Made by a program: the position numbers and the translations under genes. The notes under the pieces were generated by a model, which worked only from the letters and a program-made list of their open reading frames with translations, was not told the origin of the DNA and searched no databases. From IMG/VR virus record IMGVR_UViG_2711768053_000020, positions 1 to 45,210 of that record: DNA of 45,210 bases; one strand, 5' to 3'. The stretch's first letter is position 1, and each line of letters opens with the position of its first letter. Source of the stretch: a virus (taxonomy: Duplodnaviria > Heunggongvirae > Uroviricota > Caudoviricetes). Below are positions 1 through 45,210 of this stretch, piece after piece.

Positions 1-834
1 ATGTCATCTTCCATCAAACAACAGATTAGAGATCGCAGCGAGTACATTGGTTTTATCGAAAAATGTTTTGCAAATGCGCATCAATGCTACGTTGTCCATT
101 ATTCATGTGAATCTTTTTATGATGCTGTGGGCGGTAAATCCACAAGGATCACCTCTATTGCTGTCAGAAATTTAGGCAGTGGGCAAACAGATCATTGGGC
201 TCTTAATAGATCCGCAGAATTATTAGGTCTTGATGTTTCAGATGAAAAAAATCTCGATATCCTTGAGCATCATCTATTAGATAACTACTTTACATTCCTG
301 AAAAGATACGCACAATGCACATTTCTGCATTGGAACATGCGAGATAACAATTACGGATTTCAGGCCTTACAGCATAGATTTTCAGTCCTAGGTGGCGAGC
401 CCTTTATACTTACTGATGACAGAAAACTCGATTTAGCGAGAGCTGCCGTTTCTATATATGGACGAAGCTATATTGGGCATACCGCCAAAAGTGGCCGTGC
501 AGGTAGAATGTTAGCTCTTGTTGAAAAAAATGGTATCGCTGATAAAGATGTCTTAGCCGGCGCTGAGGAAGCCGAGGCATATGTCAAAGGTAAGTATAGA
601 GAGCTAGAAATGTCTACATTACGAAAGGTCGACATACTCTGTAATATTGCTGAGCGGATTCATGATCGTACTCTCAAAACTAACAATAAATGGTTTTGGC
701 CAAGAAGCTGGCATCCATATTGGTTAACGATGAGGCTCAAAGAACACCCATTAGTGACTGGATTAATAGTTTTAGGGATTTTCTTAGGTGTAATTACCAA
801 AGGTCTAGATCTATATGCTTGGTGGCAGCAGTAA
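1..834 (+). CDS. hypothetical protein (277 aa) with C-terminal hydrophobic segment
   Basis: ATG at window position 1 and an uninterrupted 277-codon ORF; C-terminal LVTGLIVLGIFLGVITKGL looks like a TM helix. No family recognised by eye. Confidence 0.45.
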   Translation: MSSSIKQQIRDRSEYIGFIEKCFANAHQCYVVHYSCESFYDAVGGKSTRITSIAVRNLGSGQTDHWALNRSAELLGLDVSDEKNLDILEHHLLDNYFTFLKRYAQCTFLHWNMRDNNYGFQALQHRFSVLGGEPFILTDDRKLDLARAAVSIYGRSYIGHTAKSGRAGRMLALVEKNGIADKDVLAGAEEAEAYVKGKYRELEMSTLRKVDILCNIAERIHDRTLKTNNKWFWPRSWHPYWLTMRLKEHPLVTGLIVLGIFLGVITKGLDLYAWWQQ

Positions 835-3425: not shown

Positions 3426-4700
3426 TCACCTGACAACGGGTAGATCAGAGAATCGGGTGGTGTAACGTGGAGAAAGCATTTCCCGTTTCATCTGCCACTG
3501 CTGCTGGATACCCTGTCCTGCAAAATACAGCGTCCCCCTCCCGCCTTTGGCATTGAGGTGATCCAGCACTTCCATCAGTTTCTCACTGCCCGGGCGCGGC
3601 GCGTTATCATCGAACAAGTTGAGCTGGGCCACGCCCTGACTGAAGAAATCACCCAACATCACCCCGGCTTTCTGATACCGATATCCGTCTTGCCATATGG
3701 CGTCCAGACAGCGGATGGCTGCACTGATGATATCCCGACTGTCCTGCGTAGGCGTCAGAAGCTTCACGGAGGCATTATTGCCATAATAGGGCTCGTTCAG
3801 TGCGAACGGGCTGGTCTTCACAAACGCCGAGATAAAACGGCAATACTGGTGCTCGCCACGCAGTTTCTCTGCCGCCCGCGAGGCATAGCTGCAGATCGCC
3901 TGGCGCATCTCTTCATACTCCGTGATACGACCGCTAAAAGAGCGGGAACAGATAATTTCCTGTTTCACTGGCGCGAATTCTTCCAGTGCCAGGCAGGGTT
4001 CTCCGCGTAACTCACGCACCGTTCGCTCCAGCACGACATTAAAATGTTTACGGATAAAACGGATGTCCGTATCAGCGAGTTGCAGTACGGTCTTGATCCC
4101 CATCGCCTCCAGTTTTTTCGAAATACGCCGACCGATGCCCCAGACTTCATCAACCGGCAGCGCGGCCATCAGTTTGCGCTGGCGATCGACACTGGACAGG
4201 TCTACCACCCCGCCCGTCTGCCGCTGCCATTGTTTGGCCGCGTGGTTGGCCAGCTTGGCCAGCGTCTTGGTCTGGGCAATGCCAACACCCACTGTCAGAT
4301 GCGTTCGCTGCAGAACAGTAGCACGGATTTCACGGCCAAAATCAGTCAGATCACGACAGTTACGTACACCAGTGAGGTCACAAAATGCCTCGTCTATCGA
4401 GTAAATTTCACAGCGCGGCGACATTTCTTCCAGCGTGGTCATCACCCGGTTAGACATATCCGCATACAGCTCATAGTTGCTGCTGAAGCACACCACCCCA
4501 TGGCGCCGGAAAAAGTCCTTCTGCCTGAAGTACGGCTCACCCATTTTGATACCCAGTTTCTTTGCCTCTGTGCTGCGGGCAATAACACAACCGTCATTGT
4601 TGGAAAGCACCACAACCGGCCTACCTTTGAGATCCGGGCGAAATACAGTTTCACAGGAGGCATAGAACGAGTTCACATCACACAACGCGTACATGATCAA
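3426..4700 (-). CDS. umuC: DNA polymerase V catalytic subunit UmuC (Y-family polymerase)
   Basis: 424 aa; N-terminus [20 protein letters not shown]...[15 protein letters not shown] and colinear similarity along the whole length to enterobacterial UmuC; start overlaps the umuD stop (ATGA). Confidence 0.95.
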
Positions 4701-5119
4701 CCCGTCGATTTCACGATGAACGTCACCACACCAAAAACATCGAGCGTTTCTTCGCTCCCGATGATGATAGGCGACCAGGCGCGGTTTTCAGGGTTAAGCT
4801 GGACAGTTGGCCATAACTGTAGGCGCTTAACGGTAAATTCCCCGTCCACCGCAGCAATAACGATATCGCCGTGCTCTGCCTTGCGTGAACTGTCCACTAC
4901 CAGTAAATCGCCTTCGCCGATCCCGGCATCAATCATCGAGTCACCAGATGCCTTAACGAAGTACGTGGCGCTGGGGTGTTGTATCAGTAGCTCGTTAAGA
5001 TCGATACGCTGTTCAACGTAGTCCTGAGCAGGGCTTGGGAAACCACAGGGTACAAGATCGCCATAGAGTGGAAGCGGCTGCACTGCACGCAACCCGGAGG
5101 GAGTGAAAAACTGCATCAT
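4697..5119 (-). CDS. umuD: UmuD (LexA-like self-cleaving SOS mutagenesis protein)
   Basis: Contains [18 protein letters not shown] and [17 protein letters not shown]...[17 protein letters not shown] motifs of UmuD. The track ORF begins at a TTG (5131); the tandem ATG ATG at 5114-5119 is the more likely start. Confidence 0.9.
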
Positions 5120-5135
5120 AATCACCGTCAATTAA

Positions 5136-5155
5136 TACTGATATTATATACAGTA
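5136..5155 (-). promoter_or_regulatory. LexA (SOS) box upstream of umuD
   Basis: TACTGATATTATATACAGTA has the CTG-N10-CAG SOS-box architecture and sits about 17 bp upstream of the umuD start. Confidence 0.8.
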
Positions 5156-5223
5156 GTTTTTATTTAAACGGAGATCAATGGCATTAGCCACCATCAGTCA
5201 TCATCGTCGCATAACTCAATGAT

Positions 5224-5775
5224 TTACCTGGTTGCCGGAAATTTTTTATATAGCGTCGATATCCCAACATCGTAAATTAATGCCACACGCTGTCGTGATT
5301 CACCTGCTGCAACCAACCTTCCTGCCTGCGCCCACTGTTCATCAGTTAGCTTTGATCGACGCCCACCTATTCGCCCTTCTTCACGAGCCGCAGCCAATCC
5401 CGCCCTGGTACGTTCGACTATCAGCTCCCTTTCCATTTCGGCAAGTGCGCCCATGACATGGAAGAAAAAGCGTCCCATTGGTGAAGACGTATCTATGCTG
5501 TCGGTCAGGCTGCGAAAGTTAATACCCTTTTCCCGAAGCTCCTCCACCAAAACGACAAGATGCCGCATGCTGCGACCGAGTCGATCCAGTTTCCAGACCA
5601 CCAGCGTGTCACCTGCCGATAATGTCCTGAGCAGCTTTTTCAGTCCTGGTCTGTCGGACTTTGTACCGCTTATCTTGTCTTCAAAAATCAGCTCACATCC
5701 TGCACAGTTCAGCGCATTACGTTGTAGATCTGTGTTCTGGTCATTTGTTGACACACGTACATAGCCAATAAGCAT
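5224..5775 (-). CDS. serine recombinase, DNA invertase of the Pin/Gin/Hin/Cin family
   Basis: MLIGYVRVSTNDQNTDLQRNAL N-terminus with catalytic Ser, VVWKLDRLGRS and SPMGRFFFHVMGALAEMERELIVERT motifs, C-terminal HTH; likely start is the internal Met (MLIGYV). Confidence 0.9.
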   Translation of the reverse strand: MLIGYVRVSTNDQNTDLQRNALNCAGCELIFEDKISGTKSDRPGLKKLLRTLSAGDTLVVWKLDRLGRSMRHLVVLVEELREKGINFRSLTDSIDTSSPMGRFFFHVMGALAEMERELIVERTRAGLAAAREEGRIGGRRSKLTDEQWAQAGRLVAAGESRQRVALIYDVGISTLYKKFPATR

Positions 5776-5801
5776 GGTAGATCTCCCTGACAAAAGCAGG
5801 A

Positions 5802-6338
5802 ATGATGCCATTTGCTCGTTATTTCTGTATTTTCATAAACGTTGGTTTGGGAGAAGGCTCAGCATTACCTGTTGGGGTGCCTGTTCCGTGGCCTTCAGAG
5901 ACACCTCCAACAGGCTGGCTGAAATGCAACGGGGCGGCTTTTTCTGCTGAAGAATACCCGGAACTGGCAAAGGCTTACCCGACAAATAAATTGCCTGATT
6001 TACGAGGTGAATTTATTCGTGGCTGGGATGATGAACGTGGTGTGGATAGTGGGCGAACTCTGCTTTCAGCGCAAGGAGATGCTATTCGAAACATTACTGG
6101 CGGTTTTGGTCAGTTGCGCGTAAACAGCGAAATTAATGCAATTGTCGATGTTCAAAGCGTGAGTGGGGCTTTTTACGGAGGTACCTCCGTCCGGAATAAC
6201 ATCAATGTATCTATGACATACGCTAATGACCGAAAAATCCGACAAGATGTTCACTTCTCGGCGGCAAATGTTGTTCCAACAGCAAATGAAAATCGTCCAC
6301 GTAACATCGCCTTTAATTATATTGTGAGGGCCGCATGA
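5802..6338 (+). CDS. alternative tail-fibre C-terminal segment (silent orientation, promoterless exon)
   Basis: Frame reads through the crossover site (…NVGLGEGSALP…) so that inversion would fuse it to the constant N-terminus of the tail-fibre gene; WPSETPPTGWLKCNGAAFSAEEYPELAKAYP looks like a tail-fibre receptor-binding tip. Confidence 0.6.
   Translation: MMPFARYFCIFINVGLGEGSALPVGVPVPWPSETPPTGWLKCNGAAFSAEEYPELAKAYPTNKLPDLRGEFIRGWDDERGVDSGRTLLSAQGDAIRNITGGFGQLRVNSEINAIVDVQSVSGAFYGGTSVRNNINVSMTYANDRKIRQDVHFSAANVVPTANENRPRNIAFNYIVRAA
5830..5855. repeat. invertase crossover site (gix/hix-like 26-bp site), copy 1
   Basis: TTTTCATAAACGTTGGTTTGGGAGAA; the half-site TTGGTTTGGGAGAA is the reverse complement of the half-site inside the tail-fibre gene at 7799-7824. 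Confidence 0.6.
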
Positions 6339-6940
6339 TGAATAAAGCCGTATTGAATAGTGAACTCATTGCCATAAAAGCGGGAGACATTATCATTTAT
6401 AATTATGATGGTGAAACGCGGGAATATATTTCTACATCAACTGAATATCTCGCTGTCGGCGTCGGTATCCCGGCATGTTCCTGTTTGGATGCACCAGGTA
6501 CACATAAAGCTGGTTATGCAATCTGTCGCTCTGTAGATTTAAATTCATGGGAATATGTGCCAGACCATCGCGGTGAAGTTGTCTATAGTACCGAAACGGG
6601 AGATACCAAAGAAATCGCAGTTCCGGGTGATTATCCTGAAAATACAACCACTATCGCCCCGTTAACGCCATACGATGAATGGGATGGTGAGAAATGGGTG
6701 ACCGATACTGAAGCACAGCATAGCGCCGCAGTAGGCGCGGCAGAAGCACAGCGTCAGTCACTGATTGATACTGCAATGGCTTCCATTAGTCTGATTCAAC
6801 TGAAATTGCAGGCCGGGCGGAAGCTGACGCAGACAGAAAACACCCGACTTAACGCTGTGCTGGATTACATTGACGCGGTGACGGCAACAGATACCAGCAC
6901 CGCGCCGGACGTCATCTGGCCTGAACTGCCGGAGGCGTAG
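6335..6940 (+). CDS. tail fibre assembly protein (alternative copy, U'-like)
   Basis: 201 aa, follows the alternative fibre segment with a 4-bp overlap; C-terminal ...DYIDAVTATDTSTAPDVIWPELPEA resembles Tfa chaperones. Confidence 0.75.
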   Translation: MMNKAVLNSELIAIKAGDIIIYNYDGETREYISTSTEYLAVGVGIPACSCLDAPGTHKAGYAICRSVDLNSWEYVPDHRGEVVYSTETGDTKEIAVPGDYPENTTTIAPLTPYDEWDGEKWVTDTEAQHSAAVGAAEAQRQSLIDTAMASISLIQLKLQAGRKLTQTENTRLNAVLDYIDAVTATDTSTAPDVIWPELPEA

Positions 6941-7355
6941 GCCATTCAATATCTGGCGCACCGGAAGTATCAACCAGTTCCAGTGCGTCCAGATAATCCA
7001 GCCATAAATTATATTGTTCCAGCTCGTCACCTTTCAGACGACCAATAGCAGCTTTGCCAGGCCACTGATGGGTATTGATGTAGGTATTGACTTCTGAAAC
7101 CAAAGATATTTTTTTCATTTCAGCCGTCAACACCTCATCCTCTTTTGAAGGTGGTGGGGAATTAATCCATACTGGCCGTCCTGAACTGTCAGCGCCAATT
7201 TCTTTCCCTTCTGGATGCAGACCAAGAAATTGCTCATATGTTTCTCTGGTAATTTCAATAACATCATCAGGAAGCGTTCCCGCATCCTCATATTCTGGAA
7301 ACAATTCTTGCAGATAAAAACTTTTACTCCCGGGTGAAAAGAATACTGAGTTCAT
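6912..7355 (-). CDS. tail fibre assembly protein (expressed copy, U-like)
   Basis: 147 aa directly downstream of the tail-fibre gene; C-terminal ...DYLDALELVDTSGAPDIEWPTPP parallels the other Tfa copy. Confidence 0.8.
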   Translation of the reverse strand: MNSVFFSPGSKSFYLQELFPEYEDAGTLPDDVIEITRETYEQFLGLHPEGKEIGADSSGRPVWINSPPPSKEDEVLTAEMKKISLVSEVNTYINTHQWPGKAAIGRLKGDELEQYNLWLDYLDALELVDTSGAPDIEWPTPPAVQAR

Positions 7356-7357
7356 TA

Positions 7358-8101
7358 TTACCGTCCAATGATTAACGCTGAGACGCTGGTATCTGAAGGA
7401 AAGGCTGCATTCAGTGGTTTGTCGACTTTGAACACAATCGTATTATTCCCCCTGACAGCGGCAAAAGAACAAACCGCAGTCGCGTATGAACCTGTAATAT
7501 TACTGGATACACCACCATAAGCTGTTGTTGATACCAGAGGGACAACGCCCAGCACCTTATTAGGAAATACAAAGGGCAATGTGGCTGTGGCAATATAAGA
7601 CTTATTAGAGCCTGTGATGGCATAAGCATTATCAGTCATTCCATTCATCGCCACCGGGCCGCTTATACTTACAGTAACCATCTGAATGATTAGCCCGTCA
7701 GGTTGACGAATCACAAAATTTCCATTGCCACCAGTAACCGTCCAGAAAGACATATCAGGGATTTGGTTTTCCCCGTTGCCCACATTCCGTTTTGCCGCTT
7801 CTCCCAAACCAAGGTTTTCGAGAGCTGTTTTCACCGTGCCATCCGATTTGATATCGCCAAACGGATTCTTGCGGCTTAACAGCAGCGCACGAAGCGCGGT
7901 AAGCAGCTGGTCATGCCGCCCCTTCTCCAGGCTGGCACCGGATGCCTCCACAACGCTGCAAAGCTCCTCCTGCAACATGTCAAAGTAGTCATCATCCAGA
8001 TCGGTGGCAGGCGTGCCGGTCTGGGGGTTACCACGGGTAAAACCGTTCTTACCCGCGCCGAACTTATCCTTCTGCGCGGTTTTCGTGTCTATACGATGCA
8101 T
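7358..8101 (-). CDS. tail fibre protein (constant N-terminus plus currently expressed variable C-terminus)
   Basis: 247 aa ending the tail operon, immediately after the baseplate genes; crossover site embedded at residues about 94-101. Confidence 0.8.
7799..7824. repeat. invertase crossover site, copy 2 (inside tail-fibre gene)
   Basis: TTCTCCCAAACCAAGGTTTTCGAGAG in inverted orientation relative to 5830-5855; falls at codons about 94-101 (LGLGE) of the tail-fibre gene. Confidence 0.6.
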
Positions 8102-8104
8102 GGA

Positions 8105-8689
8105 TTACTCCGGATATTTAAAAATTACGTAGGTATGCGACGGGCAGAGTTTGTTAAGCACACATTCGACGACGGTGTCGCCCCAGATACGCAGTGCGGA
8201 ATCACAGGGATCACCACATGTCATCCAGGTGGTGTTGGTGGCGGATGGCATGTTGACCTGCCAGTAATACCGCCATTCCGGCGCATTCACCGCGTCAGTA
8301 CAGGCCGATGAGCAGGTGAACGTGCTTTTGTCGTATCGCGTGATGGTGGCGTCTGGTCTGCCCAGGGCAGCAAGCTGTGCAAGGTAAAAATCCTCATTGA
8401 TGCCGCCCGCCAGGTTAACCTTCGCATCCAGCCGTTGCTGACGCTGGCGAAGGGTCTGCGTCCCTGCGGGAATACATTCATCCGGCAGGCCGCACAGACG
8501 CTCCCAGCGATTTATCAGTTCAGTGGTGGTACGCGGATCCAGCTCCCGCATCAGGGCATCCGCACGCTTATGAACACGGGTTAATGACGGTGCCGCACCG
8601 GCAATCGCCGGATCGCTGGCTGACCATGCCGGACCGGGCGGCAACAGTGCCGATAACAGGCGGATGTAATCATCGTTTGTCACGTCCAT
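8105..8689 (-). CDS. baseplate/tail protein, Mu gp48-like (DUF2313-type)
   Basis: 194 aa, position between baseplate J-like gene and tail fibre; family assignment is from module position and recollection, not a search. Confidence 0.7.
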
Positions 8690-38891: not shown

Positions 38892-39710
38892 ATGTTTGCA
38901 TTGCTGATCATTCCACTTTTAGTAAGTGGATCCTTACTGGTTACATCGCCCCATAACATCAAATTATTCTATCGACTCCACCGTTACGACGGCCAGCTTC
39001 TCTATATGAAGGTGGCCACGTACGGTGTGTACTCGTTCATTGTTGCAGTCGTGCTGGCGTATGCAACCAAGTACTTTATACCAAGCCTTACACTGGTCAC
39101 ATGGGTATCACATCTTATTGATGGTAGTGCAGACCCTAAAGAAAACAGGATAACATCATGGCTCATCCTGCTATCAGTGGCGACTTGTGGAGTTGCTTTT
39201 ATTTGGTTGCAGATATGCAAATTTCGTATGTTTGTGGCAGCAAAAACTATTAGTTCTGCATCCAATAATGCAATTTCTATCAATTTCGCAAAGCAACTAA
39301 TCAGGCTTAATGAGTTGGAAAAACTGTTGTCTGATGGCTCACTTGGTCAGCTATTCTTTGATTCAGCGACTACAAACAGACCGGTACTGATAAGCCTGAA
39401 ATGCCGCAAAGTATATGTCGGAACAGTTAACATGATTAGTGAGCCAAACGAAAAACAAGGCCCTAACCTTGAAATTTCTATTAGCCCAATCATGTCTGGT
39501 TACAGGGACAAGGACACACTAAGGGTCCTGTTTTCAAATGATTACAACGATCTTGATGGAGTTGATACCAGTATCATATTTCCATTAAGTGAGGTTTCGC
39601 ATGCTTCTTGGTTCAATATGGATATACATGAAAAAGTAGACAATAACCGAGAGAAGAAACCAGAAACAAACCGCAAGAAAAAACGTAAATATGGCAGGAC
39701 TACGAATTGA
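38892..39710 (+). CDS. hypothetical membrane protein (272 aa)
   Basis: Starts 4 nt after the upstream stop; N-terminal half with several hydrophobic helices, C-terminal half soluble and basic at the end. Confidence 0.55.
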   Translation: MFALLIIPLLVSGSLLVTSPHNIKLFYRLHRYDGQLLYMKVATYGVYSFIVAVVLAYATKYFIPSLTLVTWVSHLIDGSADPKENRITSWLILLSVATCGVAFIWLQICKFRMFVAAKTISSASNNAISINFAKQLIRLNELEKLLSDGSLGQLFFDSATTNRPVLISLKCRKVYVGTVNMISEPNEKQGPNLEISISPIMSGYRDKDTLRVLFSNDYNDLDGVDTSIIFPLSEVSHASWFNMDIHEKVDNNREKKPETNRKKKRKYGRTTN

Positions 39711-39784: not shown

Positions 39785-39820
39785 ATTCGGACACGGGTTC
39801 AACTCCCGCCAGCTCCACCA
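39785..39820 (+). other. ssrA: tmRNA (ssrA) / tRNA-like 3'-end fragment ending in CCA; probable att remnant
   Basis: ATTCGGACACGGGTTCAACTCCCGCCAGCTCCACCA has T-arm, acceptor 3' strand and CCA, and from memory matches the 3' terminus of enterobacterial ssrA with one mismatch; no 5' portion of the RNA gene is present upstream. Confidence 0.55.
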
Positions 39821-39985
39821 CTTTTTAGTTGTTTGAAGTTCAATGAAGTCTACTAAGCCCACACAGCACAAGCTCTGCGGGCTTTTTTACGTCTATTGTC
39901 GTCCAGTGAGAATTGCTGAGAACTACGAGTTATGGCACCCTGAATGGGACCCATTAAGAAGGGTCCAAAAACCGAGGGTCCCAAA

Positions 39986-41215
39986 ATGGCAAAAATCGCT
40001 AAGAAGCTCACTGACACTGAAATCAAAAGCACCAAGCCAGCCGATAAAGAAATCAACTTGTTTGACGGTGATGGTCTGATTCTACGAATCGCTCCTTTGG
40101 CGAAAGGAGGCAAGAAAAATTGGTATTTCAGGTATGCAGTACCAGTGAGCAAGAAAAGAACCAAAATGAGCCTTGGGACATATCCTCACCTTACCCTTGC
40201 AAGAGCCAGAGCCTTACGTGATGAATATCTCTCCTTTCTGGCAAATGGTGTTGATCCCCAAATCCATAACAACGATAAGGCGAAGGCATTAAAGAGTGCT
40301 ACTGAGCACACTCTCCAAGCCGTAGCGCGGAAATGGTTAGATGAGAAGGTAAAGACATCAGGTATCTCACAAGACCATGCAGCAGACATCTGGCGCAGCT
40401 TAGAGAGAAATGTCTTTCCCGGTCTGGGTAATGTCCCTATCAATGAGATCCGACCTAAGCTCTTAAAACAACACCTTGATCCTATTGAGCAACGAGGCGT
40501 ATTGGAAACTCTACGCCGTATCATTTCACGTCTGAATGAAATCTTCCGGTGGGCAGCTACTGAAGAACTTATTGAGTTCAACCCGGCTGACAACCTTGGT
40601 CAAAGATTCAGTAAACCAAAAAAGCAAAATATGCCTGCCCTTCCCCCAAGCGAATTGCCAAGGTTTATGGAATCTTTGACGAATGCGTCAATCCGGTTGG
40701 AAACACGTATGCTAATTGAATGGCAATTGTTGACATGGGTTCGTCCGGGTGAAGCCGTTCGCGCAAGGTGGTCTGATATTGATACAACCAACAGCATTTG
40801 GAACATTCCTGCTGATTTCATGAAAATGAAAAAGCTTCACAAAGTTCCTTTGAGTAAAGAAGCTTTGCGCATCCTTGAATTAATGAAATCAATAAGTGGG
40901 CATAGAGAATGGGTTTTCCCCAGCATAAAAGCGCCTCTTAATCATATGCATGAACAAACAGCCAACGCAGCTATCATCCGAATGGGGTTCGGAGGCGAGC
41001 TTGTAGCTCACGGTATGCGTTCTATTGCACGAACAGCGGCAGAGGAGTCTGGTAAATTCAGAGCTGAAGTTCTTGAGGCAGCGCTTGCCCACTCGAAAAA
41101 AGATGAAATTATCGCAGCATACAATCGTGCAGAATATCTGATAGAGCGACAGAGTTTGATGCAATGGTGGAGTGATTACGTTCAAGCTCAAAGATCAAAT
41201 GCTCTGGTAGCCTAA
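39986..41215 (+). CDS. P4-type tyrosine integrase
   Basis: N-terminal MAKIAKKLTDTEIKSTKPADKEINLFDGDGLILRIAP...NWYFRY is the characteristic P4-integrase N-terminus; C-terminal ...AHGMRSIARTAAEESG...AALAHSKKDEIIAAYNRAEY catalytic region; directly downstream of the tmRNA-like fragment. Confidence 0.9.
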   Translation: MAKIAKKLTDTEIKSTKPADKEINLFDGDGLILRIAPLAKGGKKNWYFRYAVPVSKKRTKMSLGTYPHLTLARARALRDEYLSFLANGVDPQIHNNDKAKALKSATEHTLQAVARKWLDEKVKTSGISQDHAADIWRSLERNVFPGLGNVPINEIRPKLLKQHLDPIEQRGVLETLRRIISRLNEIFRWAATEELIEFNPADNLGQRFSKPKKQNMPALPPSELPRFMESLTNASIRLETRMLIEWQLLTWVRPGEAVRARWSDIDTTNSIWNIPADFMKMKKLHKVPLSKEALRILELMKSISGHREWVFPSIKAPLNHMHEQTANAAIIRMGFGGELVAHGMRSIARTAAEESGKFRAEVLEAALAHSKKDEIIAAYNRAEYLIERQSLMQWWSDYVQAQRSNALVA

Positions 41216-41253
41216 GTATCAGAATAGCTAATATAATCCTGAAGGTAAAGAAA

Positions 41254-41670
41254 ATGGAAACCCTATTCAAAGTTTTTGAAAAATTTAGTTCCAGACCACT
41301 TTTTTTTATTTTTTTCGGACTCTCACTTTGTGAATTTTTTCAGAAACAATCTGTTCTGATGAATCCATCAGCAGATAACATCGCGAAATTATTCGCAGCC
41401 ATGATATTAGTTGTTTTTTTTACTTGGGGATTTGAATGGCTAATCTTCAAGTTCAATGTAAACCTTGAACCTCATGATCAAGGCGATATTGGACCAACAA
41501 TTGGAACGGCTACTTTAGCTGTATACTTAGTTTATGCCTTTCACTTTCTCAGTGAAAATCCTGAAGCATTAAATTTAAAGTTATTAACTAACTCTGGCTT
41601 TATATACAGCACAACTCTATTATTATTCTCATTAGAATGCATGAAGCTTAGAAGACTTAAACAAAAATAA
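41254..41670 (+). CDS. hypothetical small membrane protein (138 aa)
   Basis: AT-rich ORF with about four hydrophobic segments, immediately after the integrase. Confidence 0.5.
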   Translation: METLFKVFEKFSSRPLFFIFFGLSLCEFFQKQSVLMNPSADNIAKLFAAMILVVFFTWGFEWLIFKFNVNLEPHDQGDIGPTIGTATLAVYLVYAFHFLSENPEALNLKLLTNSGFIYSTTLLLFSLECMKLRRLKQK

Positions 41671-41741
41671 ACAACATCATTGTGATGATAAATATAAAAT
41701 AGGCATGGCGAAAAAAAATCACCACGCCTAAAATATAATAA

Positions 41742-43508
41742 TTATGGTAGCATCATTGATACATAATCCACACCAATCCTTGAGCTATACTGAGACGCTA
41801 TAGCCTGATATCTTTCTGCATAACCAGTTCTCAGTTGAGATTTAAGTTTGAGTCGGACAGGAACATTTTGCACGTTGCCATCCATATTACTTAAAAACAC
41901 GGCAGAAATAATATTTTTTTCTTCGCCATCAACTGTTGTTCCATGATTCAACACCACCATATAATCAACAACAGGAAGCGTTTTATCCCCTTCGAAAATA
42001 GAGAGATATTTTCTTTGATTTTTATGCATTACATATATATATTTCGAATGTTCAGCAAATGGCAATGCTTTACTCTGACTGGCGTTAAAAAGCTCCAGAA
42101 CTTTAATGAGCCTGTGCGGACTTAATCTTACATGGTGAGGGTCGTTACCCTGAGTAGGAACCAAATCACATGCCGCAGATACACATAAATACCATTTGTT
42201 CGACTCTGTATCAAAGAAAATAGTGCCAGTAGAAATATGACCATCTTCAAAATTCTTTGAAGACAAATTCATATTTAAAGCATGATACATTTCGTGATAA
42301 GTATCATTATTTGATGGCAGATCCATTTTTGAAGAGCAATATTGGAGCAATGCAGCAACTCCGCTGTTAGCGTATTCATTTGAATAGCTATCAAAAACAC
42401 TTTTGATAAATTCATCCAGCGTATTATTATTTTTAAGTCTTTGATAAAGCTCTTCTGATAAATTACCAAATACAAAGTCAATATTTCTACATCTAATATC
42501 AGGCGAGTCTGATTTTAATATCTCATTTAACCACGCAGCTTGACCGTAATGATCGTTAGCCAAATGATTTACAAAAGATAAAGCCTCAGCTTCGATTGCA
42601 TTCTGAATTTCAGATTTTATTAACTGATAATAAGATGGTTTCCATTCAATGAGAGAATCATTGAGAGTTTGCCAAATCCTATCTCCATCGTTTTCATGAT
42701 CATCTTGAACCTTATGAAATAGGGAGACAAAGATATTACCACATTGAATCCATTTTACTCCGCTTTCATCACCCCGAATGACATTGCCAGATGTGTTGCT
42801 AGAAATAATTGCATTTCTAGACACAGCATATTCTGCAATCATTTTTGCAATGAAGTTTTTATCCTTTTGATCCTCCAACACAGCATCATCATGTATTAAT
42901 CTTTTAATTCTTCTACAAGGCTTACTGTCTTTAATATAGGCTATTGTTTCATCTCTTGTGAGAGCTTTATTACCATTATCATTTAAGTTCGGTAATACAA
43001 CGTCTTCCCAATAACTTTGGACATCTTCATTATCGTAGTCAATGATCAAGCTGTTGATATCCAGAGCACCTTTGAGAGTCGATGATATCTGCATCCAAAC
43101 CGTTTCTAAATTCTCTCTAGTATATATTACAATCATATTTAAATGATCGGAGTCTTTCAAATCTTGTAATAGTTTAAGTGTTTTATCAGGTGCATTATTA
43201 TCAAGATGATAATCTACAATAATAAGATCTGATTTTCTAATCCGATCCACATCGAAATTAACAGAACCATTGTCAACATCACAAATCATATTTTTAGATT
43301 GAAAAAAGCTCTCAAGAGTAGCGGCTCGTTTAGATGAGTCAATTTTGTTGTAGTCTAAATCAACTTCGTTATTCAACGCCCTGATTGATTCAGAATACGT
43401 CAGAAAATCGTCATCAATCATGACAACGGAACGAATTGCATTTTCGCAGAAAGTTTTCTGGACAAGAGAATTATAATTTGCCACTGTCATATTAGAACTC
43501 CACTCCAT
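41742..43508 (-). CDS. receiver (REC)-like domain protein with unassigned C-terminal domain (588 aa)
   Basis: N-terminal region has REC hallmarks in order: acidic pair (VVMIDDDF), putative phospho-acceptor Asp (DLIIVDYHL), conserved Thr (MIVIYT); about 400 further residues unrecognised. Start overlaps the upstream kinase gene by 17 nt. Confidence 0.7.
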   Translation of the reverse strand: MEWSSNMTVANYNSLVQKTFCENAIRSVVMIDDDFLTYSESIRALNNEVDLDYNKIDSSKRAATLESFFQSKNMICDVDNGSVNFDVDRIRKSDLIIVDYHLDNNAPDKTLKLLQDLKDSDHLNMIVIYTRENLETVWMQISSTLKGALDINSLIIDYDNEDVQSYWEDVVLPNLNDNGNKALTRDETIAYIKDSKPCRRIKRLIHDDAVLEDQKDKNFIAKMIAEYAVSRNAIISSNTSGNVIRGDESGVKWIQCGNIFVSLFHKVQDDHENDGDRIWQTLNDSLIEWKPSYYQLIKSEIQNAIEAEALSFVNHLANDHYGQAAWLNEILKSDSPDIRCRNIDFVFGNLSEELYQRLKNNNTLDEFIKSVFDSYSNEYANSGVAALLQYCSSKMDLPSNNDTYHEMYHALNMNLSSKNFEDGHISTGTIFFDTESNKWYLCVSAACDLVPTQGNDPHHVRLSPHRLIKVLELFNASQSKALPFAEHSKYIYVMHKNQRKYLSIFEGDKTLPVVDYMVVLNHGTTVDGEEKNIISAVFLSNMDGNVQNVPVRLKLKSQLRTGYAERYQAIASQYSSRIGVDYVSMMLP

Positions 43509-45210
43509 TGAACTGGATCACAAAATTAGCGCCATCTTTTATTAAATAGTTATCGCCTTCATCAGGTTCTGAATACCATATTTTATGATGTGCAACAGCA
43601 AGGTTTTCTCGACATAGATACAGACCTACCCCATGTCCATTTGCTCTTTTGCTATAAAATAGTTCAAATAGTCGCGGGATATCATCGGTATCAATTGCCG
43701 GACCAGAATTTGCTATGATAACCAAAGAATTCACAAAACCAATCTTTATGAGCCTATTATTTGACAGACTGACCCAATACATTGCATTGTTGATAATATT
43801 AGTAAAAACAGGATAGATCCTTGATGGTATATCTGTTATTGCGATTTGCTTAAACTCTTCACTAAATTCAATAGTTATTCGTTGCCGTTCGAAACGCTCC
43901 CCAAAGAACTTCAGGACATAATCCATGATATTTTTTCCAGTTATTCTCTGCCTGGATTGATAACCTGATATTTTCAAAGGTGATAAGAAACGTATTTGTT
44001 GAGTAAGCGATCTGTGAGCATTTAACGCCAATGAAAAACCAGGGTGTTCTTTTACAGAAGTAGGAAGAGAGTTTAGTCCTCTGGTTACCATAGAATCCAT
44101 TTCTTCAAGTTCATGAGATATTATCTCAACACTAATACCTAACTGTGCAAGCGCGTTTAAACTTTTAGCTTTTTCTTCAAAATATGAGCGTTCTTCTTCA
44201 GATAATGAGAATGCTGAATCTAAGTTTATACCTTCAAATAATCTATCGAGACCTTTTATTATTGATTGATATTTGAAAGTTAGGGTATCAACTGACTCAA
44301 CATATAAACTATCGAGCAAATTAAACACATTTTCAATTTGTGAATCATTATCTATTGAATCAACAACTGATATAGTTTTAGCATAATAATCACTTCGATC
44401 AACCTTTATTTCATCGGCCCATTTTTTTAAAAGAGAATGTATCTTCTCCTCTATCGTGTTATTAAACTTAGTTAGTTTAGAATTAATAATACCTTGATTT
44501 TTTTCAAGGTGATTTTTCGCTGACAATGAAGGCTCAAGTTTATTTAATTCAGAATCAAGTTTATTAATTGCTAACTTCATTTGTAGAATATACGCAGAGA
44601 ACTCATTAAATTTATCTCTGTAGTCTCTATATTTCTCTTCATACATTCCAAGTTTTGGAGGTTTGATAGGCGTTTTAATTTCACTGCGCAACGCATCTAA
44701 GTTTGTAAGATCACTGTCTATAATTTTAAGATAGTTTAAATCTAACGAACCATCAGTTTTATCAAGCTTAGTTTTCAGCCTTTTAACAGCCTCCAAGGAA
44801 GCATCAAGAACTGGTGTCTGATTCTTCAAAGCTTCTGAAAAACTTTTTTGTGTTGATTTTCGAGCTTGTTGTTGAGCAGATTTTCTTAACTCTTTTTCAC
44901 GCTTAACTTGTTCTAAAAGCTCTTTACGGTCATCAGAACGTGAACCAAAAAATCTATCAGCAAGTTCAGTTAACAAATTAGATATAATAGTTTTCAGTTC
45001 TCTTGCAGCCTGGTTTCTTATGAATCCCTCTCTCCCCGACTTATCTTTCAGCTCTTTATTACTGGATTGAGTAATTCCAATATAACCAAAAATCCTTCTA
45101 TTAGACCAATAATATCGCCCTGCATTCCATGAACGTCTTTCTTCTATCTGGAAGAAATCATTATCTACTCGACCATAAGGTAATACTCTCAAGCTATCCC
45201 TAAAAATCAT
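43492..45210 (-). CDS. cytoplasmic histidine kinase-like protein (572 aa)
   Basis: C-terminal core with H-box (ISHELEEMDSMV), N-box (NIINNAMYW), G1 (ANSGPAIDTDD) and G2 (GHGVGLYLCRE); about 380-aa N-terminal region is coiled-coil-rich with no TM segment. ATG coincides with the last window base. Confidence 0.75.
   Translation of the reverse strand: MIFRDSLRVLPYGRVDNDFFQIEERRSWNAGRYYWSNRRIFGYIGITQSSNKELKDKSGREGFIRNQAARELKTIISNLLTELADRFFGSRSDDRKELLEQVKREKELRKSAQQQARKSTQKSFSEALKNQTPVLDASLEAVKRLKTKLDKTDGSLDLNYLKIIDSDLTNLDALRSEIKTPIKPPKLGMYEEKYRDYRDKFNEFSAYILQMKLAINKLDSELNKLEPSLSAKNHLEKNQGIINSKLTKFNNTIEEKIHSLLKKWADEIKVDRSDYYAKTISVVDSIDNDSQIENVFNLLDSLYVESVDTLTFKYQSIIKGLDRLFEGINLDSAFSLSEEERSYFEEKAKSLNALAQLGISVEIISHELEEMDSMVTRGLNSLPTSVKEHPGFSLALNAHRSLTQQIRFLSPLKISGYQSRQRITGKNIMDYVLKFFGERFERQRITIEFSEEFKQIAITDIPSRIYPVFTNIINNAMYWVSLSNNRLIKIGFVNSLVIIANSGPAIDTDDIPRLFELFYSKRANGHGVGLYLCRENLAVAHHKIWYSEPDEGDNYLIKDGANFVIQFNGVEF

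Follow-up and report, generated by a model that had tools for sequence, protein, structure and literature searches.

The region at positions 5224-8101 of the window, by which we mean the whole 45,210-nucleotide stretch of DNA analysed here, very probably carries a functional site-specific inversion switch of the Pin type (Gin/Cin/Hin/Pin family) that belongs to the class of the e14 P segment. It comprises an invertible segment of ~1.97 kb (1969 bp between the centres of the two sites) that is adjoined by a gene for a serine invertase on the minus strand. We establish here the anatomy of this locus, its family membership, the in-frame alternative product that inversion generates and the natural occurrence of this same element in both orientations. 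The switch type is already known, and the find is correct but ordinary. Indeed, invertible tail-fibre segments, such as the G segment of Mu, the C segment of P1 and the P segment of e14, have been textbook examples since the 1980s.

The switch resides in what appears to be a complete SfV-like myovirus prophage, integrated at ssrA of Escherichia coli. The prophage has genes for an integrase and a CI-like repressor as well as for the terminase, portal, capsid, sheath and tape measure proteins, and its structural and early regions match SfV at 97% identity across 89% of 24.8 kb. In the late operon, a baseplate wedge gene (8105-8689) directly precedes the fibre gene. The ssrA attachment site is located about 170-200 bp beyond the left edge of the window and is separated from pin by ~5.2 kb of cargo genes. 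An earlier placement of the switch at the prophage end is therefore roughly right, with the reservation that this cargo lies between pin and the end itself. On the far side of pin are umuDC and a gene resembling those of KAP NTPases. A search with the exact LexA box pattern returned no matches, and a LexA-type box with one mismatch is present upstream of umuD.

Invertase, crossover sites and alternative fibre ends

The features of the locus are collected in Table 1. The earlier note had recognized a Pin/Gin-family invertase beside the segment, and matches to domains, structures and homologous proteins all confirm this assignment. Specifically, Pin carries the Pfam domains Resolvase (E 4.5e-51) and HTH_7, can be aligned along its whole length with the Mu Gin structures 3uj3 and 4m6f (E 1e-93; 1.9e-93 for 3uj3) and matches the DNA invertase family phrog_125 (E 1e-96). 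The protein is about 80% identical to Gin and 90.6% identical to PinE of e14 (blastp), and RefSeq gives the name pinE to a closely related invertase at the same position in other E. coli genomes. Searches against NCBIfam yielded sub-threshold recombinase matches only, and none for the fibre or chaperone proteins. The open reading frame (ORF) of pin reaches position 5811 by way of an upstream in-frame ATG; translation probably begins at the ATG at 5775, which has a GGAG 7 nt upstream.

Table 1 Features of the switch region and its upstream neighbour, with positions in the window
Feature	Position	Strand	Basis
pin, DNA invertase (small serine recombinase), 183 aa	5224..5775	-	Pfam, Gin structures, e14 PinE, PHROG
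Putative Fis-dependent recombinational enhancer	5691..5754 (pin nt +22 to +85)	-	Conserved Fis-like core
Silent alternative fibre end, ORF	5802..6338	+	Pfam Collar E 6e-16; phrog_523; e14 StfE
Pin-proximal 26-bp crossover site, TTTTCATAAACG TT GGTTTGGGAGAA	5830..5855		Identical to e14 pinE-proximal site
TfaE-like tail-fibre assembly chaperone of the silent end, 201 aa	6335..6940	+	Caudo_TAP E 1.2e-30; 89% identical to e14 TfaE; phrog_105 E 1.3e-96
Tail-fibre assembly chaperone of the expressed end, 147 aa	6912..7355	-	Caudo_TAP E 2.7e-27; 56% identical to e14 TfaP
Expressed tail fibre, 247 aa	7358..8101	-	Constant part matches e14 StfP; PHROG split
Fibre variable C-terminal part, residues 102-247	7358-7798	-	No similarity to e14 StfP end
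Fibre constant N-terminal part, residues 1-101	7799-8101	-	97% identical to e14 StfP
Fibre-gene crossover site, minus strand CTCTCGAAAACC TT GGTTTGGGAGAA, encodes ..LENLGLGE	7799..7824		Identical to site within e14 stfP
YmfQ / Mu gp48-like baseplate wedge gene	8105..8689	-	Pfam Phage_Mu_Gp48; 97.4% identical to e14 YmfQ

The catalytic residue Ser9 is present in Pin, and R7, D64 and R65 are likewise conserved with Gin. Pin also carries K46, K47, R50, Q150, R153 and L154 at the invertase-specific positions for contacts with Fis and the enhancer, where Gin has K46, R47, K50, Q150, R153 and L154. In Hin, these contacts are made by K47, R48 and K51 of helix B and by Q151, R154 and L155 of helix 1 of the DNA-binding domain (PMC3798978).

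Two crossover sites in inverted orientation flank the segment, as had been proposed, although the perfect repeat extends over only ~20 nt of the claimed 26 bp and the outer half-sites differ. The repeat arms (5837-5856 and 7798-7817) are 20 nt long, 95% complementary and separated by 1941 nt. The inner half-site and the core dinucleotide are common to both sites, and the outer half-sites agree at only 7 of 12 positions. The core is TT/AA in both sites, read in the same sense, and the half-sites resemble those of gix, such that an alignment to gix reproduces the half-site and core architecture. Furthermore, both sites are base-for-base identical to the functional sites of e14 in strain MG1655. 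A 19-nt site pattern, searched with up to 2 mismatches allowed (<=2), has exactly two matches in the 45-kb window versus 0.01 expected, and at least two matches arose in 0 of 100 shuffled sequences. A multi-site shufflon was ruled out, as only two sites exist within the window. Our definitions of the sites and of the enhancer rest on our own comparison with e14 and Mu DNA, together with published work (PMC3798978).

The second of these sites lies inside the fibre gene at the junction of its constant and variable parts, in agreement with the earlier proposal that the junction is marked by the residues LGLGE. These are residues 97-101 of the fibre, and their codons span the crossover site. PHROG family matches of the fibre split at residues ~100-102, and residues 1-106 are 97.2% identical to e14 StfP with no similarity beyond (blastp). 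A match to Gp53-like_C in the fibre is weak and falls under the Pfam cut-off.

Within the segment are two alternative fibre C-termini, each accompanied by its own chaperone gene, again as anticipated: the Collar-domain end is paired with the TfaE-like protein and the expressed end with the 147-aa Caudo_TAP protein. The convergent chaperone genes overlap by 29 bp at their 3′ ends. The silent ORF consists of a 17-codon leader, MMPFARYFCIFINVGLGE, which lies outside or across the crossover site, followed by a Collar-domain C-terminus (5856-6338). This end matches the C-terminal part of the profile for the tail collar fibre protein phrog_523 (E 5.5e-79) and is 61.5% identical to e14 StfE; a PADLOC search gave no match for the silent fibre ORF. 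All ORFs of the segment are uninterrupted, and inverting the segment in silico fuses the Collar end in frame to the constant part, creating a 261-aa fibre. Both copies are thus intact, as the earlier note had judged them to be. Along its entire length, the predicted 261-aa hybrid shares 99.6% identity with a fibre annotated in E. coli LR-03, where the same segment lies inverted.

The 5′ part of pin may also contain a recombinational enhancer, which is where this element resides in gin, hin and cin. We scanned the 5′ parts of pin, pinE and gin for Fis motifs (G-N13-C with an A/T-rich centre, in pairs 48 bp apart), which uncovered one conserved core and no pair. The Fis-like G-N13-C core of pin is GTGTCAACAAATGAC at +22..+36, and e14 pinE and Mu gin both carry GTATCAACAAATGAC at this place, with one difference from the sequence in pin. 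No second Fis site in the 5′ part of pin passed the motif scan. The first 120 nt of pin are identical to e14 at 116/120 positions, including 36/40 third-codon positions, and beyond nt 240 the identity is about 63-87% per 30-nt bin. This strong 5′ conservation could alternatively reflect protein constraint or a mosaic junction.

Orientations of the segment in public data

The earlier note had called for a search for both orientations, and public data supply the answer: the same prophage is found in its native and its inverted state. These observations concern the same element in other samples, and not the data of this isolate. For example, a metagenome scaffold in ENA (L016) matches the flanks in the window without a single mismatch across 4557 and 1978 nt, and its 1981-nt segment is inverted relative to the window, with 2 mismatches. 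An isogenic pair of E. coli genomes, fS25a and PRO_A-1443, exhibits flanks that are 99.97% identical around a 1996-bp middle that is inverted; the breakpoints lie inside the repeat, and the pair shows no other difference than the inversion. The inversion breakpoints of L016, L010 and this isogenic pair (L011/L012) map within the fibre-gene site. Assemblies that carry an identical Pin and the same cargo have either a 247/147/200/177-aa or a 261/200/147/163-aa layout, and complete E. coli genomes matched at >=80% coverage comprise 19 with the native layout and 34 with the inverted one.

Many E. coli genomes already contain annotated copies of the cassette alleles of the window. A non-E. coli origin of the window was ruled out, given that its flanks are 99.8-99.9% identical to E. 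coli. The best matches in the native orientation are only ~92% identical because the closest relatives have the segment inverted. The identity to related elements falls exactly at the crossover sites.

The orientations recorded in databases could conceivably have arisen by RecA-dependent homologous recombination between the repeats, or by assembly errors, rather than by site-specific inversion. Short-read assemblers can set a segment flanked by inverted repeats either way, and the breakpoints are resolvable only to within the 20-nt repeat. However, efficient RecA recombination needs a repeat longer than 20 nt. Complete closed genomes show both orientations (the 19 and 34 noted above), a dedicated invertase with matching sites adjoins the segment, and experiments show pinE- and pinQ-dependent inversion at identical sites (PMC12529663). 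We therefore consider such an origin extremely unlikely.

A different concern is that the switch might be a locked relic in this particular strain, with Pin unexpressed or inactive and the orientation fixed. The source assembly runs through the locus as one contig that is continuous at the repeats, which would fit a fixed orientation. So would the lack of a convincing promoter for pin: in a scan of 5100-8300, no sigma-70-like promoter for this gene rose above chance, and the number of sigma-70 promoter and terminator sites was no higher than in shuffled sequence. Nevertheless, every catalytic and Fis-contact residue is present in Pin, and its sites are identical to those that flip in K-12 (PMC4272514). 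A flank-identical element is inverted in an independent sample (L016), and other Pin-like enzymes can act in trans at these sites (PMC12529663). These points make a locked relic highly improbable and favour a functional switch, for which Pin is presumably the acting enzyme in this strain.

Proposed mechanism and biological role

In a functional switch of this class, Pin dimers would bind both 26-bp sites and, together with a putative enhancer that lies in the 5′ part of pin and is occupied by Fis, would assemble into a synaptic tetramer. The switch would presumably require Fis and this enhancer. The tetramer would cleave both sites at the central TT/AA dinucleotide, and subunit rotation would then swap the strands before religation, leaving the 1969-bp segment inverted. 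Because one site falls at codons ~97-101 within the fibre gene, flipping the segment would swap the C-termini carried on a constant N-terminus, such that the 101 constant residues are joined to either of two ends. The present state would provide the 247-aa fibre and the 147-aa chaperone, and the other state would provide the 261-aa Collar-domain fibre and the 201-aa TfaE-like chaperone. By analogy with Mu and P1, inversion is expected to change receptor specificity and host range, and a lysogen population would release virions of two receptor specificities. The e14 P segment, whose sites are identical to those of the window, undergoes phase variation in K-12, as revealed by whole-genome sequencing and PCR (PMC4272514), and qPCR measurements demonstrate that PinE and PinQ drive inversion at the e14 sites (PMC12529663).

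Inversion of the e14 P segment is also reported to create a chimera called StfE2, which blocks adsorption of phage T2 (PMC12529663). With this precedent, one could propose that the switch chiefly serves the host, wherein the pin-proximal ORF is translated as a free receptor-binding domain that masks a surface receptor and provides phase-variable phage exclusion. Consistent with this proposal, a leader with an ATG is kept here, in e14 (MPFACYFFIFINVGLGE) and in LR-03, and the pin-proximal ORF is intact in both orientations (178 or 164 aa). In contrast, the variable domain that makes up e14 StfE2, namely the C-terminus of StfP, bears no relation to the one in the window, the Shine-Dalgarno-like AGGA is poorly spaced at 0-3 nt from the ATGs, and the scan of 5100-8300 revealed no promoter-like site facing the silent ORF. 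The leader overlaps both the crossover site and sequence upstream of pin, which in any case forces it to be conserved. Furthermore, a role in the virion suffices for a complete prophage, and the host-serving function would be an added one that is compatible with the main explanation. A switch that chiefly serves the host is decidedly improbable on this evidence. We also think it unlikely that the silent ORF (178 aa now, 164 aa when inverted) is expressed in the lysogen as a free receptor-binding domain with its chaperone, which would make the switch a phase-variable receptor-masking (superinfection-exclusion) device in addition. If true, receptors would be masked as has been claimed for e14 StfE2 and T2, and the other cassettes would imply other target phages.

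For the preferred reading, a tail-fibre switch of the prophage, the discovery value is slight, and the locus shares the crossover sites of e14. Its annotation value is that an e14-type switch is present in an apparently complete SfV-like prophage, and not in a defective remnant. The role of the P segment in host range was never settled for e14 because this element, to our knowledge, makes no virions, and the question has gained new interest with a report from 2025 of host protection against T2 by e14 inversion. By inducing a complete prophage, one could find out how the P-segment alternatives affect host range.

Comparison with known systems

Among the small serine invertases, the Hin system of Salmonella resembles the window locus at the protein level, where the residues matching Hin K47, R48, K51, Q151, R154 and L155 are conserved in Pin (PMC3798978), and it differs in that the H segment flips a flagellin promoter rather than fibre coding ends. 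Cin of P1 flips a larger C segment of 4.2 kb.

Within the SfV group (SfV, SfII, SfI, SfIV and SKA5), the fibre N-terminus and chaperone genes of SfIV and SKA5 match those of the window at ~92-93%, but in the matching records of the group the coverage is confined to fibre and chaperone genes and does not extend to pin. No phage record covering >=80% of the switch region was found; records such as CP019275.1 and pro483 do include an invertase.

The G segment and Gin of Mu share more of the architecture. In both systems, 12-bp half-sites with the pattern TTNTCNNAAACC surround a 2-bp core, and the genes follow the same layout, which in Mu is gp47, gp48, the S constant part, [Sv, U, U′, Sv′] and gin. 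Mu-like baseplate genes lie upstream in the window prophage. However, the Mu segment is ~3 kb and its constant part spans ~170 aa of a 504-aa fibre, compared with ~2 kb and 101 aa in the window. The core is TC/GA in gix and TT/AA in the window sites, and the rest of the window phage is SfV-like and not transposable.

The closest counterpart is the P segment with PinE of the cryptic prophage e14 in E. coli K-12 (Plasterk & van de Putte 1985, as cited in PMC4272514). The gene order is the same, namely ymfQ, the constant fibre part, [variable end, tfa, convergent tfa′, variable end′] and pin. The convergent chaperone genes overlap by 29 bp in both elements, and the segments are similar in length, with repeat arms separated by 1797 nt in e14 versus 1941 nt in the window. 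In contrast, e14 is a defective remnant that resides at icd and has mcrA on the far side of pin, whereas the window prophage is apparently complete and resides at ssrA. The cassette alleles also differ, and the expressed variable end of the window (102-247) is unrelated to the StfP end. Judged by sequence, whole cassette pairs may have been exchanged between prophages at the crossover sites. The differing alleles leave membership in the e14 class unaffected and, from the same sequence comparison, the e14 P-segment/Pin label is more exact than ‘G-segment-like’, the term used in the earlier note.

Crossover sites, fibre alternatives and invertase

An inverted-repeat search of the window returned a single outstanding repeat, 5837–5856 and 7798–7817, which is 20 nt long and 19/20 complementary. 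Extended to 26 bp, the sites read TTTTCATAAACG-TT-GGTTTGGGAGAA (5830–5855) and CTCTCGAAAACC-TT-GGTTTGGGAGAA (7824–7799, minus strand), each consisting of a 2-bp core flanked by two imperfect 12-bp half-sites. The cores are equal when both sites are read in one direction. A 19-nt pattern of the part shared by the sites, searched with up to two mismatches tolerated, occurs exactly twice in the 45-kb window (0.01 expected). Thus, of the inverted 26-bp crossover sites described in the earlier note, the two sites are present, with the repeat itself confined to 20 nt.

Features of the window
Feature	Position	Strand	Remarks
Prophage-end gene	1–834	plus	no Pfam domain; PHROG unknown-function family (phrog_8766)
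KAP-family P-loop NTPase-like protein, 582 aa	1554–3302	plus	PADLOC PDC-S49, E 8e-14
umuD/umuC pair of prophage	3426–5116	minus	~75% DNA identity to chromosomal umuDC
Serine recombinase ORF (pin)	5224–5811	minus	ORF call
Alternative fibre ORF	5802–6338	plus	Collar-domain fibre C-terminus from crossover site onward (Pfam, PHROG)
Caudo_TAP chaperone, 201 aa	6335–6940	plus	opposite to fibre gene
Caudo_TAP chaperone, 147 aa	6912–7355	minus	downstream of expressed fibre gene
Expressed tail-fibre gene, 247 aa	7358–8101	minus	holds site 7799–7824
Prophage-end gene	38892–39710	plus	no Pfam domain; PHROG unknown-function family (phrog_3630)
attR, second attachment site of prophage	39786–39820		35-bp copy of ssrA 3′ end
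P4-type integrase, second island	39944–41215
Response_reg_2 protein, second island	41742–43508
HEF_HK/HATPase_c protein, second island	43492–45210		reaches window end

The site within the expressed fibre gene falls at residues ..LENLGLGE (97–101). PHROG assigns residues 1–102 to an N-terminal tail-fibre family and residues 101–247 to a different one, and this split at residues ~100–102 places the crossover at a module boundary, as expected from the proposal that the site marks the constant/variable junction (LGLGE). In-silico inversion of 5843–7811 yields an uninterrupted, in-frame 261-aa hybrid fibre. Therefore both fibre alternatives, each with its own chaperone, are intact, as had also been claimed.

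The convergent chaperone genes share a 29-bp overlap (6912–6940). They also carry an 18-nt internal inverted repeat (6859–6876 and 6985–7002) that encodes a common LDYIDA/LDYLDA motif and is likewise found in e14, a cryptic prophage of Escherichia coli K-12. Homologous recombination between the repeat copies could occasionally cause secondary inversions.

Translation of pin probably begins at the ATG at 5775, which has GGAG 7 nt 5′ of it, and a 183-aa product is annotated at the same place by RefSeq (strain SZQ1) and by gene callers (L005). This protein carries Pfam Resolvase (E = 4.5e-51) and HTH_7 domains, retains the catalytic residues of this invertase family and aligns over its full length with crystallised Mu Gin (3uj3 and 4m6f; E ~1e-93, ~80% identity). 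Its residues K46, K47, R50, Q150, R153 and L154 correspond to Hin K47, R48, K51, Q151, R154 and L155, which are specific to Fis/enhancer-dependent invertases (McLean et al., PMC3798978). One Fis-like core, conserved in e14 and Mu, lies at pin +22 to +36. The first 120 nt of pin match e14 at 116/120 positions, including 36/40 third-codon positions, versus ~63–87% identity per 30-nt bin beyond nt 240. From sequence, we infer a putative Fis-bound enhancer in pin.

In the established scheme for the Hin/Gin/Cin/Pin family, Pin dimers would bind the two crossover sites, a Fis-bound enhancer in cis would assemble the invertasome, double-strand cuts staggered by 2 nt would be made at the core, and subunit rotation would precede religation of the ends. 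Analogy with Mu and P1, together with the nature of the domains, suggests that the progeny would have two receptor specificities.

Both segment orientations in public data

Complete E. coli genomes were queried with the locus as it lies in the window (native layout) and with the locus after in-silico inversion of the segment. At coverage of at least 80%, the native layout was found in 19 genomes (top match 92.4%, two pieces) and the inverted layout in 34 (top match 95.9%, one piece, 97% of the query). In LR-03, the best inverted-layout match, the segment is 99.0% identical to that of the window and inverted relative to its flanks, and its 261-aa fibre, as annotated, shares 99.6% identity with the predicted hybrid. 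The isogenic pair fS25a and PRO_A-1443 carries one prophage with 99.97% identical flanks and an inverted 1996-bp middle, whose breakpoints fall inside the repeat. Looking up the exact Pin protein turned up the prophage of the window, accompanied by the same umuDC and KAP genes, in each of the two layouts. An ENA metagenome scaffold (L016) matches the window flanks with 0 mismatches over 4557 and 1978 nt and carries the 1981-nt segment in the opposite orientation, with 2 mismatches. Public data thus served as an approximation of the refuting test in the earlier note, a single orientation, and both orientations were found, L016 providing an inverted example.

RecA recombination or assembly artefacts might also produce both orientations, but this is unlikely given that the repeat is only 20 nt, that closed genomes show both states and that inversion at these sites experimentally depends on pin genes (PMC12529663). 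The identical e14 sites flip in K-12 cultures, as seen by whole-genome sequencing and PCR (PMC4272514), and qPCR measurements show PinE and PinQ driving their inversion (PMC12529663). The switch is also unlikely to be a locked relic, because its parts are intact and an identical element occurs inverted elsewhere. These findings confirm the observation made in the earlier note and support its interpretation as an invertase-driven fibre switch.

Assemblies whose Pin and cargo are identical to those of the window (L014, L017 and L018–L021) share 99.9% identity with it as far as the crossover site. Within the segment, identity falls to 88–93% or the cassettes are unrelated. Prophages seem to exchange cassette pairs as units bounded by the crossover sites (5837–5856 and 7798–7817).

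Prophage setting and cargo

By sequence identity, the window is E. coli DNA: its flanks are 99.8–99.9% identical to E. coli chromosomes, and it matches contig CXXT01000043.1 of GCA_001268445.1 at 100%. Its left edge lies ~170 bp beyond ssrA (3 complete genomes). The prophage between the ssrA attachment sites is apparently complete, with integrase, CI-like repressor, terminase, portal, capsid, sheath, tape measure and Mu-like baseplate genes, and shares 97% identity with SfV across 89% of 24.8 kb. Cargo comprising umuD, umuC, a KAP-NTPase-like gene, an SRAP pseudogene and a gene of unknown function separates pin from ssrA, and thus the switch, previously placed at the prophage end, is the last virion module rather than literally the end.

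An exact LexA-box pattern had no match; a LexA-box-like element, TACTGTATATAATATCAGTA directly upstream of umuD (5136–5155), has 1 mismatch to CTGT-N8-ACAG. PDC-S49, to which the KAP-like protein is assigned, is a candidate defence family in PADLOC. Elsewhere, the slot beside pin holds a different KAP NTPase (next to pinE in fS25a and PRO_A-1443) or mcrA (in e14). The site on the far side of pin thus seems to serve as a slot for cargo or defence genes. The two prophage-end genes may be morons. A second, separate island lies past attR (39786–45210); it and the prophage are tandem integrations at ssrA.

The left 5.2 kb of the window recurs at 99.9% identity in three complete genomes, E. coli SZQ1 (L002, 11224–16221), L003 and L004. 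The fibre regions beside pin in L002–L004 are different or decayed relative to the window, and SZQ1 has lost most of the prophage, such that its fibre gene directly adjoins early genes and the integrase.

Relation to e14 and Mu

Because RefSeq names related E. coli loci pinE, tfaE and YmfQ, the window was compared directly with e14 of MG1655. Site alignment, a check proposed in the earlier note, found both crossover sites identical to those of e14, base for base, with a design common to gix. The e14 proteins are also close: YmfQ is 97.4% identical to its counterpart, StfP 97.2% to the first 106 residues of the window fibre and TfaE 89% to the plus-strand chaperone. At 90.6% identity to PinE and ~80% to Mu Gin, the invertase belongs to the Pin/Gin family, as first proposed. 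Gene order is shared (ymfQ, constant stf part, then the segment of variable end, tfa, tfa′ and variable end′, then pin), as is the 29-bp overlap between chaperone genes. In contrast, the variable ends are not shared: the expressed one has no relation to that of StfP, and the silent one shows 61.5% identity to StfE.

Like e14 StfE2 (PMC12529663), the silent-side ORF could possibly have an added function in host defence. However, the window lends this role no support: the variable domain of the ORF differs from that of StfE2, its ribosome-binding-site spacing is poor and a promoter search found none for it.

As for the fibre switch itself, identical sites, orthologous proteins and shared gene order place the locus, on sequence evidence, with the e14 P segment and Pin within the Hin/Gin/Cin/Pin family, though its cassette alleles are different ones. 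Mu has the same design, although its gix site (TTATCCAAAACC-TC-GGTTTACAGGAA) has a TC rather than a TT core and its segment is larger. Such systems are established, and annotations of related copies elsewhere in E. coli already use the names pinE and tfaE. The locus is of little value as a discovery, being a well-formed example of a known switch in an apparently complete SfV-like prophage.
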